Shown here: in pieces, positions 1,787 to 5,908 of the stretch | How the letters are laid out: each line of letters begins with the position of its first letter | Numbering within the stretch: position 1 is the stretch's first letter | Virus record (IMG/VR): IMGVR_UViG_3300031998_000001 | Coordinates: 237,064 to 301,063 of that record | Direction: 5' to 3' (one strand) | Source of the DNA: a virus | Taxonomy: Duplodnaviria; Heunggongvirae; Uroviricota; Caudoviricetes | Length of the DNA: 64,000 bases | The notes under the pieces: model-generated | Database searches by the model: none | Told to the model about the DNA's origin: nothing | What the model saw: only the letters and a program-made list of their open reading frames with translations | Translations under genes and position numbers: made by a program

Positions 1787-2092
1787 ATGCCGAGCAAAAG
1801 CAAAAAGCAACAAAGGTTCTTTCAACTTGTCAAGGCTGTTCAGGACGGCAAGGTCAAGAGGAAGGATGTAACCAAAGGCGTAAGGGATGCCGCTGGCTCT
1901 ATGTCAAAGCGTCAGGTGTCCGACTTTGCCGACCATCTGTCAAGGCGCAGGAAAAGAGTCAACGACGGGATTATGTGCTTCGATGACTTCGTGGCATCCG
2001 CGCTCTGCGAAACTCTTTTCACGCATATCAAGAAATTAAGTGATTTCGGAATTATCCCTTTTAGTCTTGTAAAATGTGAGTTGTATAAATAG
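1787..2092 (+). CDS. DUF3008-like small basic phage protein; C-terminus altered by the cassette insertion
   Basis: MPSKSKKQQRFF..V..VQ.G motif; removing the cassette and one TSD gives ...HIKKLSDFK-TAG. Confidence 0.65.
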   Translation: MPSKSKKQQRFFQLVKAVQDGKVKRKDVTKGVRDAAGSMSKRQVSDFADHLSRRRKRVNDGIMCFDDFVASALCETLFTHIKKLSDFGIIPFSLVKCELYK

Positions 2093-3331
2093 AGTATAGT
2101 ATTTCAATCGGATGGAAAGAGTTTACACATACAAGTTCAGGTTGTATCCGAACAGAGAGCAGCAGGTTTACCTTGCCAATGTGTTCGGTTGTTGCAGGCT
2201 TGTGTACAATCATTTCCTTGATGAAAAGAAAAACCAATACAATGAATCCAAAACAAGTGATTCGTACAATGTACAACAGTCTAAACTGACACTACTTCGC
2301 AAGACTGAAGGTTTCGAGTTCTTGAATGCTGTTCCTTTGCAGTCTTTGCAATGCAGTTTGAGAAATATGCACACCGCATACGAGAATTTTTATAAACATA
2401 GAAGTTCTTATCCGAAGTTTAAGAACAGAAGGGACAAACAATCGTTCAAACTACCACAGGAGCAATGCTTCAAAATAAAAGATGGCAAACTTTACATTCC
2501 GAAACTAAAAAGCGGGATTGATATTGTGATGGAGCGTGTGGTTGTAGGAAAGATATGCTTTGCAACCATCTCAAAAAACAAGGCAGGACGTTATCATATA
2601 ACCATAACAGTCAAGCAAGACTATGAACCTTGCAAAAAGACAAACCGTTCGGCTGGACTCGATATTGGTATAAAGGATTTTGTCATTACAAGTGACGGGG
2701 TGAAATATAAGAACCACAGGAGTATAATTAGGGCATTAAAACGCAAACTCAAACATAACCAACGACATCTGTCAAGAAAGATACACGGAAGTAAACGATA
2801 CGAAAACCAAGTGTTGAAATGCAACCGAATCTATCAAAAGATAACAGATGTCAAAACTGACTACATACATAAGATAACCAATGAACTTGTTAGAAACTAT
2901 GATGTTATAAAGGTTGAGGACTTGAACATCAGAGGAATGATGAGGAATCACAAGTTATCAGAGGCAATATCAGAATGTAATTGGTATCAGTTCATACAGA
3001 CGCTTGAATACAAGTGCCTGTGGAATGACAAGACCTTGATTAAGATTGACAGGTTTTATCCGTCAAGCCAAATGTGCAGTGATTGCGGTTATGTTGAAAA
3101 GCGTGTAAAGAACTTAAATGTAAGGGAATGGACTTGTTGCAACTGCGGTTGTCATCACGACAGGGACATCAATGCAGCAAGAAACATTTTGAAATATGAT
3201 TCGGCAAGGAGTGCCGAAAACAGTCGTGGAGTTGTATGCAAACCGTTTGCAAGACCCAAGAAAACTGGTGAACGAACGGACAACTGTGAAGCGACCATTG
3301 AACTTTTACAAGAATAAAAGGGATAATTCCG
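2047..3331 (+). mobile_element. 1285-bp TIR-bounded, transposase-less element carrying tnpB (IS1595-like ends)
   Basis: 28-bp inverted repeats 2047-2074 and 3304-3331 (1 mismatch); 8-bp direct repeat AGTGATTT at 2039-2046 and 3332-3339. Confidence 0.9.
2112..3317 (+). CDS. tnpB: TnpB RNA-guided nuclease (IS200/IS605-type OrfB)
   Basis: YKFRLYPN..Q HTH; RuvC-I GLDIG, RuvC-II VEDLN, Zn finger CSDC/CCNC, RuvC-III DRDINAARNI all intact; TATAAATA at 2084-2091. Confidence 0.95.
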   Translation: MERVYTYKFRLYPNREQQVYLANVFGCCRLVYNHFLDEKKNQYNESKTSDSYNVQQSKLTLLRKTEGFEFLNAVPLQSLQCSLRNMHTAYENFYKHRSSYPKFKNRRDKQSFKLPQEQCFKIKDGKLYIPKLKSGIDIVMERVVVGKICFATISKNKAGRYHITITVKQDYEPCKKTNRSAGLDIGIKDFVITSDGVKYKNHRSIIRALKRKLKHNQRHLSRKIHGSKRYENQVLKCNRIYQKITDVKTDYIHKITNELVRNYDVIKVEDLNIRGMMRNHKLSEAISECNWYQFIQTLEYKCLWNDKTLIKIDRFYPSSQMCSDCGYVEKRVKNLNVREWTCCNCGCHHDRDINAARNILKYDSARSAENSRGVVCKPFARPKKTGERTDNCEATIELLQE

Positions 3332-3354
3332 AGTGATTTCAAATAGGAACGCCG

Positions 3355-4083
3355 ATGGAAAACAACAGAATCATAAACTGGAGCGGATACGAGTGGCAGA
3401 CGCAGGAACGCTGGGGGAATCTTCATAAGGACAAGGCTTGGGCTTGGTACGACTCGAAGTGCGTGGGCATTGACGATGACGGGACGCTCCGCCTGTGGAT
3501 AGACTACCGCCCGAACACGGTAACGGTAGATGGCGTGCAGTACAGCCCGTCATACGGAATGGGGCTTCTCTCCTCGACCAAGAACAACCCAGAGTTCAAG
3601 TTCGGCAGGTACGCTTGGGAGGCGAAGTTCCCGAAGGGCAAGAACCTGTGGTGCGGTCTGTGGATGTGGTCGTGGCAGTCTTGGCCCCCAGAGATAGATG
3701 TGGTCGAGGCTTGGACTAACTCCTGCGGGGGATACTTGAAGTGCTTTGCGAAGGACGCTCTGCTGTACTGGGACTTGACGACGAATCTGCACGACCCGAA
3801 CGCGAAGTGGAATATGGTCAGGCACTGGGCGTTGAGGCACAATGCGAAGAACCCAGCCGACAACTTTATGGAGTACGCGCTCGAATGGACACCAGAGAGC
3901 CTGAAGTTCTACTACGGGGGCAAGTGCATAAGGACTATCGACGACAGGGAACTTATGGAATACCTCAACTCCAATACCAACGGGGGTATGAATGTCATTA
4001 TGAACAACCACCCGACGGAGAAGTACGCATCAATCTCCCCGTCGGAGCCGTTGCTCGTGCGCTCGTTCAGGTACGAGAAATGA
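3355..4083 (+). CDS. glycoside hydrolase family 16
   Basis: F.FGRY..EAKFP.G..LW..LW and catalytic PPEIDVVE motif, Y.LEWTP. Confidence 0.85.
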   Translation: MENNRIINWSGYEWQTQERWGNLHKDKAWAWYDSKCVGIDDDGTLRLWIDYRPNTVTVDGVQYSPSYGMGLLSSTKNNPEFKFGRYAWEAKFPKGKNLWCGLWMWSWQSWPPEIDVVEAWTNSCGGYLKCFAKDALLYWDLTTNLHDPNAKWNMVRHWALRHNAKNPADNFMEYALEWTPESLKFYYGGKCIRTIDDRELMEYLNSNTNGGMNVIMNNHPTEKYASISPSEPLLVRSFRYEK

Positions 4084-4136: not shown

Positions 4137-4161
4137 CGGAATTATCCATTTGGTCTTGCAA
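4137..4161. repeat. orphan TIR of the CGGAATT cassette family
   Basis: CGGAATTATCCATTTGGTCTTGCAA, close to the TIRs at 2047 and 5884-5908. Confidence 0.75.
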
Positions 4162-5316: not shown

Positions 5317-5908
5317 CGGAATTGTCCCCTTTGGTCTTGCAGATTTTTTTTCAATTTCAATCGGTTATCTTTTATCTCTTACAAGAAATACATAATTCCT
5401 TTCATATTTATTTGATGAATAAATACAAAACTCATACATATTGTCAATACCATAAGAATATGCGCAGTGTTTAAATTTACGGTCTGTGTCCTTTGTCCAG
5501 ATATGAAAGCCACCGCCGTATGGGGCTTCATCCCTTATTCTTAATTCCTCACCCTTTATTTTTATAATTTCATACGGGATTGACCAATAGGCGTTCCATC
5601 TTGTGTTCGGTTTGAATATCTGCTTTATCTCTTTTAATGTCGGAAGCCTCCATCCGTTGTCATTAAAGTCTTCAACATCATTGAACTTAAATTTGTGTTC
5701 ACCATTGATTTCAAGTGCGTATTTTGCCCAAAGCACTGTTGTATTACCACCGAAATCAATAAACTCACGCCCTTCGATTTGATTTGTATTGGTTGTGTCA
5801 ACCGTAGCATTTTCGATTGCCATTTCGTTAATTCTTTTGATGTGTATCATATTCAAATAAATTATATTATCTTATTTATATCTTACAAGACCAAAGAGGA
5901 TAATTCCG
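5317..5908 (-). mobile_element. 592-bp TIR-bounded cargo cassette, same family as the tnpB element
   Basis: TIRs 5317-5341 and 5884-5908 (22/25 match); 8-bp direct repeat TTTTTAAA at 5309-5316 and 5909-5916. Confidence 0.88.
5365..5850 (-). CDS. cargo protein: CTS-like N-terminus plus DUF1566/Lcl-like (WRLPT..E) domain
   Basis: MIHIKRINEM start; FIDFG..LWA, GWRLPTLKE, IWT, FLVR motifs; TATAAATA at 5873-5880 inside the cassette. Confidence 0.7.
   Translation of the reverse strand: MIHIKRINEMAIENATVDTTNTNQIEGREFIDFGGNTTVLWAKYALEINGEHKFKFNDVEDFNDNGWRLPTLKEIKQIFKPNTRWNAYWSIPYEIIKIKGEELRIRDEAPYGGGFHIWTKDTDRKFKHCAYSYGIDNMYEFCIYSSNKYERNYVFLVRDKR

Follow-up and report, generated by a model that had tools for sequence, protein, structure and literature searches.

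How an intact tnpB gene comes to lie between the ends of an IS1595-type transposon in a phage genome, and what it could gain there, is the question raised by this locus. The window, that is the whole 64,000-nt stretch of DNA analysed, is part of a virus record of 387,654 bp with a gp23-type capsid match, and the host virus is a large gut phage of the rumen jumbo phage group. The element measures 1,285 bp and has IS1595-type inverted terminal repeats (TIRs) and an 8-bp target duplication (TSD). It has no transposase, and its sole gene is an intact tnpB. The features at the locus are:

1787-2046, + strand: host phage ORF with the insertion site in its last codons; its product has 88 aa in the empty allele and, by extension into the TIR, 101 aa in the filled one
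2037-2038, + strand: TA dinucleotide directly 5' of the TSD, the putative TAM (TA, or TAW with the first TSD base)
2039-2046, + strand: left TSD copy AGTGATTT, the single copy of the empty alleles
2047-2074, + strand: left TIR of IS1595 type, whose first 25 bp equal those of an autonomous element in the same genome
2084-2091, + strand: TATAAATA, 20 nt upstream of the tnpB ATG, probably a phage late promoter
2112-3317, + strand: tnpB, 401 aa, with intact catalytic triad and C4 zinc finger
3304-3331, - strand: right TIR; the pseudoknot is predicted to involve its outer bases TTCCG (3327-3331)
3332-3339, + strand: right TSD copy AGTGATTT; its first base is the predicted scaffold position -1 and the rest would open the guide
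3333-3351 (alternative register 3332-3350), + strand: predicted guide
3355-4083, + strand: GH16 glycoside hydrolase gene (domain match) in the downstream flank, outside the element

The sequence-only reading of this locus had described 28-bp TIRs with one mismatch around tnpB, a perfect 8-bp duplication, a 37-bp interval between left TIR and ATG that holds TATAAATA, and a tnpB stop codon within the right TIR; all of this is seen at the positions given above. It had also noted that removal of the element restores the end of the upstream ORF (HIKKLSDFK-stop), and had called for empty alleles to be sought. Real ones exist and have exactly this ORF end. They were obtained by comparing public runs with the locus, not from relatives of the upstream ORF, and were found with one TSD copy in four of eight runs from two studies (X8 and X10 from study P6, X9 and X12 from study P7). 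The contigs join position 2038 to 3332, with 8 letters fitting both sides; the short side of the joint comprises 255 letters in X8 and X9 and 60-61 letters in X10 and X12. The TIRs as well as tnpB are missing from these alleles, and because a single TSD copy remains, the insertion is real and not a product of chance. In two runs from other studies (X3 and X5) and in locus L025, the allele is filled and position 2040 reads A instead of G, a change confined to the left TSD copy. The upstream ORF has one relative (65%), in a different gene context, and no relative of the GH16 gene was found in viral contigs. The motif TATAAATA, which we take to be a T4-type late promoter, is present in 126 copies in the genome (about 13 expected) and lies within 80 nt upstream of 100 of the 760 ORFs, in 73 of those 100 at a distance of 20-29 nt.

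No DDE transposase was found inside the element. That TnpB had been captured by a non-autonomous IS1595-like element, as the sequence-only reading proposed together with a search for an IS1595 transposase with the same ends, is supported by the empty alleles and by a partner in the same genome. A genome scan for the TIR revealed an autonomous IS1595 element (G000:156819-160206), whose 25-bp TIR cores are identical to those of the tnpB element and which is flanked by an 8-bp TSD, ATTTTAAA. It encodes a transposase of 310 aa (NF033547, 181.6 bits at a cut-off of 75; PF12762) and three passenger ORFs. TIRs of about 25 bp and an 8-bp TSD are hallmarks of the IS1595 family (PMC5704250), and the tnpB element has both, sharing its TIRs with this family member. 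Given the identical ends and the 8-bp TSD, the tnpB element would very probably be mobilised in trans by an IS1595 transposase encoded elsewhere. Transposases 92-97% identical to this one occur in three loci from Bacteroidales MAGs, which points to Bacteroidales as the phage host, with the proviso that some of the MAG contigs could be misbinned phage. Five related phage records, including one complete record, contain TIR elements, but a search for an IS1595 transposase in them found none; in these phages it would be supplied by the host or by a co-infecting phage.

The protein itself is a regular TnpB. It matches PF12323, PF01385, and PF07282, scores 314 bits against NF040570 (above the cut-off of 100) and 394 bits against NF038281 (below the cut-off of 425), and matches the PDB entry of ISDra2 TnpB with an E value of 7e-76. 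The RuvC residues D184 and E269, the DRD motif (350-352), and the four zinc-finger cysteines are present, so that it has the RuvC triad and zinc finger of IS200/IS605-type TnpB. The element around it does not conform to the definition of that family (IS1341-type members included), which has neither TIRs nor a TSD (PMC13565253). TnpB scans returned 5 viral and 33 metagenome loci; six same-site duplicates, four loci whose left TIR is missing or ambiguous, and three cut by contig ends were left out of the junction count, and six distant hits of the metagenome scan (31-33% identity or short fragments) were set aside. Close relatives (75-100% identity) lie within the same TIRs at 20 independent sites, counted as left junctions, which settles in the affirmative whether close homologs share the TIRs at different sites. 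All three catalytic motifs (D/E/D) are kept in 21 of 21 full ORFs. The median dN/dS is 0.078 (170 of 210 pairs, those computable with dS > 0.05), and, as judged from this ratio of about 0.08, the family is under purifying selection. A protein search yielded a tier of about 88 near-full-length clusters with 56-100% identity, below which identity falls to about 53%. The 21 TIR-bearing sequences group in one branch (SH-aLRT 100) of a quick tree, together with 13 proteins examined at the protein level only; a single origin of the TIR-bearing TnpBs is suggested by this tree, for which SH-aLRT is the only support measure. For the tier of 60-70% identity, the element ends are suggested by C-terminal peptides alone; a scan with the distant clade member P0064 found one weak locus only, and no TIR core was detected in next-tier viral loci having a full ORF. 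Among annotated phages, no relative closer than 47.5% was found.

These observations fit a reading that we regard as likely, in which a transposase-less, IS1595-ended tnpB element is moved in trans, its guide RNA directs the cutting of empty alleles, and the element spreads by co-infection. An IS1595 transposase from elsewhere would move the element to new sites, and the insertions beside a TA would be those that TnpB keeps; by the site preference of the transposase, about one third of new insertions should be usable by a TA-reading TnpB. An omegaRNA extending across the right TIR would take its guide from the right flank, and TnpB with this RNA would cut empty copies of the site next to TA(W). 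In a co-infected cell, the cut empty allele would be repaired from the filled one, by which the element would pass between phages. The element would be protected from its own nuclease, since no more than 8-9 guide bases fit the filled left junction and a TAM is missing at the right junction. The 9-nt fit at the filled left junction that had been pointed out from the sequence is correct when counted from TSD base 1, and mismatches follow at positions 10-11; double mismatches within positions 1-12 abolish cleavage by ISDra2 TnpB (PMC10097598). This partial target arises because the TAM, unlike in IS200/IS605 elements, would lie outside the 8-bp duplication. Besides this match, the genome contains no TA followed by a guide match of at least 8 nt. 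With filled and empty alleles and a partner transposase in the same genome at hand, the model of homing between phages is directly testable.

TnpB activity is predicted, and its benefit to the element would, on balance, come from homing or from the exclusion of empty alleles during co-infection. An active TnpB might instead mainly serve the phage or the retention of the element within the genome, either by cutting competitor phages or excision products or by binding and regulating neighbouring genes. This is improbable, even though many guides mismatch the original site, several in the family begin at or within a downstream start codon, and RNA-only mini-elements persist in a complete phage without a TnpB of the same clade; restorative homing and the killing of competitors are also both discussed in a review (PMC13565253). 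Where the TSD is intact, however, the guide matches a real empty allele from other samples, and the intact catalytic residues in 21 of 21 ORFs argue against a regulator that only binds. An excision footprint with a doubled TSD would, moreover, have no TA in front of the second copy.

Homing into empty alleles presupposes a TAM, and the left flanks contain a candidate. TA directly precedes the left 8-mer (positions -10/-9) at 19 of the 20 independent TnpB sites, compared with 45 of 128 distinct same-TIR ends without TnpB from 119 bacterial genome loci (p=2.8e-7), 6/17 ends upstream of a transposase, and 2/25 scaffold-side ends. The frequency is likewise 6/20 at non-TnpB TIR ends in phage loci, which are 22 ends minus the two left ends of TnpB-derived mini-elements. 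Loose ends among the run contigs, whose pairing and class are unsure, were excluded from all TA counts. These comparisons speak against another account, in which an IS1595 mini-element carries TnpB as ordinary cargo and the TA stems from target choice by the transposase or from insertion into late promoters, not from a TAM. Unrelated passenger genes are indeed common within the same TIR family. The transposase favours (Y)A at -10/-9, with A at -9 in 95 of the 128 ends, along with an AT-rich 8-mer, and its target choice therefore accounts for part of the TA signal. Furthermore, 4 of the 20 TnpB sites lie inside TATAAATA. Once these are removed, TA is nevertheless found at 15 of 16 sites (p=7e-6), and mere cargo would account neither for purifying selection on TnpB nor for a scaffold loop altered to match the TIR (see below). 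We thus hold the cargo explanation to be quite improbable, and on the strength of the left flanks a TAM of TA(W) just 5' of the target appears likely, with good confidence. A TAM of two bases is unusually short. It appears to have been reduced to two bases for which the transposase, next to its target, already has a preference. With TA(W) as its predicted TAM, this compact TnpB would be a candidate for broad-targeting editing. The left TA is also present in the three RNA-only mini-elements; no TAM could be read from the left ends of the non-TIR relatives.

The guide, in turn, depends on where the omegaRNA ends. The following parts of its scaffold are recognised in the window:

3201-3217, + strand: omegaRNA hairpin 1, with a 5-nt loop (3207-3211, AGGAG here) predicted to form the pseudoknot
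3222-3296, + strand: central nested stems, GTCGT...GCGAC around a long covarying hairpin
3303-3320, + strand: predicted terminal hairpin, 3' arm formed by the TIR, at the place taken by the right-end hairpin in IS605

The scaffolds of 28 members of the TIR family align without gaps over 110 columns. The common structure is 97.5% paired in these sequences, versus 27-51% in slid controls, and 11 of its 32 pairs show double changes, far above the slid controls, with the qualification that the relatedness of the 28 sequences inflates the covariation shuffle test. A conserved structured RNA with covarying stems thus overlaps the 3' end of tnpB, as in OMEGA systems; positions 3000-3500 have no match in Rfam. 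The sequence-only reading had seen no IS605-type terminal hairpin. This stands, as neither such a hairpin nor a GTTCAN end is found in any of the 28 TIR-family scaffolds, with the amendment that a weak hairpin built on the TIR is predicted at 3303-3320 (-2.4 kcal/mol in the window copy). Longer variants have a stronger version of it, and it is predicted for most variants, though some lack it or show another one.

The ISDra2 pseudoknot forms between the terminal bases of that element (-6 to -2) and positions -102 to -106 (PMC10097598). The non-TIR relatives of the present TnpB have a 6-bp hairpin with the loop GGRAC (GGGGC in one) and a GTTCAN end in 29 of 29 scored cases. In the TIR family, the same hairpin has the loop AGGAA (19 scaffolds), AGGAG (6), or single variants (3), and the elements end with TTCCG (25/28) or TTTCG (3/28). 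The pairs between loop and end accordingly are G.A, G-C, R-T, A-T, and C-G in the non-TIR relatives and A.G, G-C, G-C, A-T, and A-T in the TIR family, so that, by this comparison, the capture was accompanied by changes in both partners at three of the five pseudoknot positions. The four canonical pairs are 98% paired within the TIR family, and no two-sided change was found among the 28 scaffolds. The pseudoknot at the element end is thus predicted from complementarity and from the change between clades only. On this basis, the omegaRNA very probably runs through the right TIR, whose end would form the pseudoknot. By the geometry of ISDra2, the last TIR base is position -2 and the first TSD base position -1, which places the start of the guide at TSD base 2. 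This register is probably correct; all 25 right flanks have A or T as their first TSD base, and the entry of that base into the scaffold would parallel the assimilation of a flanking base shown for IS607 TnpB (PMC10711439). A start at TSD base 1 requires that the closing pair of the hairpin opens and is the less probable register, albeit a serious candidate. The earlier proposal that the omegaRNA ends in the TIR and takes its guide from the flank is hence supported by the loop complementary to the TIR end, whereas its guide start should probably be shifted by one base.

The same scaffolds leave little room for an ordinary IS1341/IS605-type tnpB nested in a pre-existing MITE and moved by a Y1 TnpA, which we consider very improbable. 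The genome does encode one Y1 TnpA match and four other tnpB genes without these TIRs, and TIR mini-elements without tnpB exist (L015 and L019). The latter, however, are read as deletion derivatives. IS605 ends nested in the element, the finding that would have spoken for such a history, were looked for and not found: a GTTCAN end or IS605 hairpin is present in 0/28 TIR-family scaffolds, compared with GTTCAN in 29/29 scored non-TIR relatives. The element is, besides, bounded by the TIRs and the TSD, and the TIRs are likewise missing from the empty allele. A further idea, that the omegaRNA stops on the inner side of the right TIR and has the TIR for its guide against IS1595 ends, was rejected and has next to no chance of being correct. 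In the window copy, wobble pairs between GTGAAG and inner TIR bases are conceivable, but the length of the spacer in front of the TIR differs by as much as 17 nt from one relative to another, the loop of hairpin 1 is complementary to the outer and not the inner TIR bases, and the TAM-like signal lies in the flank.

A guide taken from the right flank may not have remained what it was at insertion. A perfect TSD is seen in only 4 of 18 TnpB copies with both ends, compared with 9 of 15 pairs in the bacterial control. Ten of the 18 copies differ at 3 or more of the 8 TSD bases, and nine of these ten keep the left TA. In copies with broken TSDs, the match between guide and original site is lost unless re-registration of the right flank took place. 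A at -9, the signature of the transposase, is present in 95/128 control flanks but in just 3/25 right flanks of TnpB copies; its lack there suggests that the right flank, and with it the guide, may have been rewritten after insertion. Individual loci illustrate possible routes. L030 starts at the TA/TG boundary in the start codon of the next gene, as seen in two relatives. Trimming to a TA is seen in L009, the sole site without a left TA, where it removes 4 nt, and in L042, where it removes 3 nt. L026 is inserted in the scaffold of another cassette, after a TA. L033 and L043 do not fit re-registration on a native TA. With most broken-TSD copies assessed without a true empty allele, a re-registration reading is possible in 6/13 cases versus 24% by chance (p=0.064), and partial overlaps of at least 4 nt occur in 4/13 versus 6% (p=0.008). 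Homing into an allele held by a cousin a few bases upstream would give such hybrid flanks.

It is tempting to extend homing between phages to a self-reprogramming system of TnpB-IS1595 cassettes in rumen jumbo phages, although we regard this extension as doubtful. The transposase would seed sites and TnpB retain those beside a TA; cassettes would then home into alleles occupied by cousins a few bases off and thereby swap in a new right flank. Guides would ratchet towards conserved start codons, and RNA-only mini-elements would share the machinery. If true, guides at conserved start codons would strike more competitor phages.

TnpB within TIRs of DDE transposons has precedents. Altae-Tran 2023 (PMC10691335) describes such associations in branches DDE-1 to DDE-6, as well as solo TnpBs with ends matching transposase-bearing elements, for which movement in trans was proposed. 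The present element shares with the former the inverted terminal repeats and a tnpB 3' end at most 250 bp from the element end, and with the latter the match of its ends to a transposase-bearing element, here IS1595. As partners, the main text of that study names IS630 (DDE-6), and a 2026 review lists ISL2, IS630, and IS1031 (PMC13565253). IS1595 is absent from the main texts of both and appears once in the supplementary information of the former, in a profile list. DDE/TIR-associated and solo TnpBs thus are already published, while no report of a TnpB-IS1595 pairing was found in the literature searched, a limited coverage that reaches few subscription journals. The passages on DDE-associated TnpB in PMC10691335 are also without a TAM, pseudoknot remodelling, or empty-allele evidence. 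According to the review, prokaryotic TnpB rarely partners with DDE transposons, possibly owing to inflexible target recognition (PMC13565253). A loop seemingly rewritten to pair with the TIR illustrates, at sequence level, how a TnpB-DDE partnership can fit.

The element combines traits of several known systems. With the IS1595 transporter elements MTnSag1 and tISCpe8, as described in PMC5704250, it shares TIRs of about 25 bp, the 8-bp TSD, and the carriage of passenger genes. Unlike these, it lacks a transposase, its passenger is an RNA-guided nuclease, and its RNA appears to fold with the TIR. Protein, scaffold architecture, end pseudoknot, and a guide from the right flank are common to IS200/IS605 TnpB such as ISDra2 (PMC10097598), whereas TnpA ends and the GTTCAN end are missing. 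The closest parallels for a TIR within the RNA scaffold and an assimilated flanking base, both predicted here, are Fanzor1 and Fanzor2* in eukaryotic TIR transposons and IS607 TnpB (PMC10711439), and the same source reports non-autonomous TIR elements with the nuclease as sole gene in SfAV. Those systems differ in that the nuclease here is a prokaryotic IS200/605-type TnpB, a lineage whose scaffold ends at the transposon boundary in that source. The pseudoknot, lost in Fanzor1 (PMC10711439), is predicted to be retained in the tnpB element, and because the TSD is long and variable, most of it would serve as guide and not as scaffold.

Two further traces of the same TIR family are found downstream in the window:

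4137-4160, + strand: orphan degenerate TIR, detected in the TIR scan of the genome
5317-5908: second non-autonomous element, with the perfect TSD TTTTTAAA

A partner end with a TSD was looked for and not found for the orphan TIR. The second element carries a passenger gene of 161-163 aa with a weak Lcl_C match that is unrelated to tnpB.

Mini-elements of about 330 bp, bounded by the TIRs but without tnpB, occur at L019 (the same as L090), L096 and L103/L105. They keep the promoter and a covarying scaffold of the predicted omegaRNA, and in each of them TA, the inferred TAM, precedes the left 8-mer. A complete 413-kb phage harbours two of these mini-elements and encodes neither a TnpB of the main element's clade nor an IS1595 transposase. 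Broken or truncated tnpB genes, with scaffold and right TIR retained, were seen at L044, L052, L107, L110 and L222.

TnpB-TIR cassettes have also inserted into each other (L026:4220-4308 and L033:2978-3001); one of these nested insertions lies inside the omegaRNA scaffold of another cassette, directly after TA, and the other inside another cassette's promoter. Comparison with the left flank of the L047 insertion revealed the uninterrupted site in L100, within the cargo of another TIR element and with TA before the 8-mer.

At the right ends of L030, L045, L046 and L110 the flank begins with TG, and the last G of the TIR could thus provide the next gene with a GTG start, as homologs show for L030 only. 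Longer right-end variants (L009, L030, L036, L038, L043 and L045) carry an outward-facing TATAAATA in the loop of the terminal hairpin, a putative driver of the downstream gene.

Diverse passenger ORFs occupy elements with the same TIRs (window 5317-5908; L001:3095-3955; L011, L013 and L014). Many passengers share the start M-x-HIKR-x-NEM, which presumably resembles the capsid-targeting leader of phage internal proteins, and a TATAAATA-type promoter stands before several of them. Two features lie near the tnpB element in the window:

Window 3355-4083: a GH16 glycoside hydrolase gene of the phage, immediately downstream of the tnpB-element insertion.
Window 4137-4160: orphan left TIR, preceding a minus-strand 249-aa ORF.

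A search for a right end or TSD matching this orphan TIR found none.

The whole 387,654-bp phage record (G000) contains other mobile genes:

G000:85585-86835, 194740-196140, 378260-379504 and 386388-end: four further tnpB genes (L002-L005).
G000:375844-376107: Y1 TnpA match, close to one of these four genes.
G000:337845-337952: remnant of a second IS1595 transposase (L326), C-terminus 89% identical.

The four tnpB genes, 35-37% identical to that of the window, belong to a family of their own, whose conserved ends are not TIRs. Similar passenger genes follow the transposase remnant.
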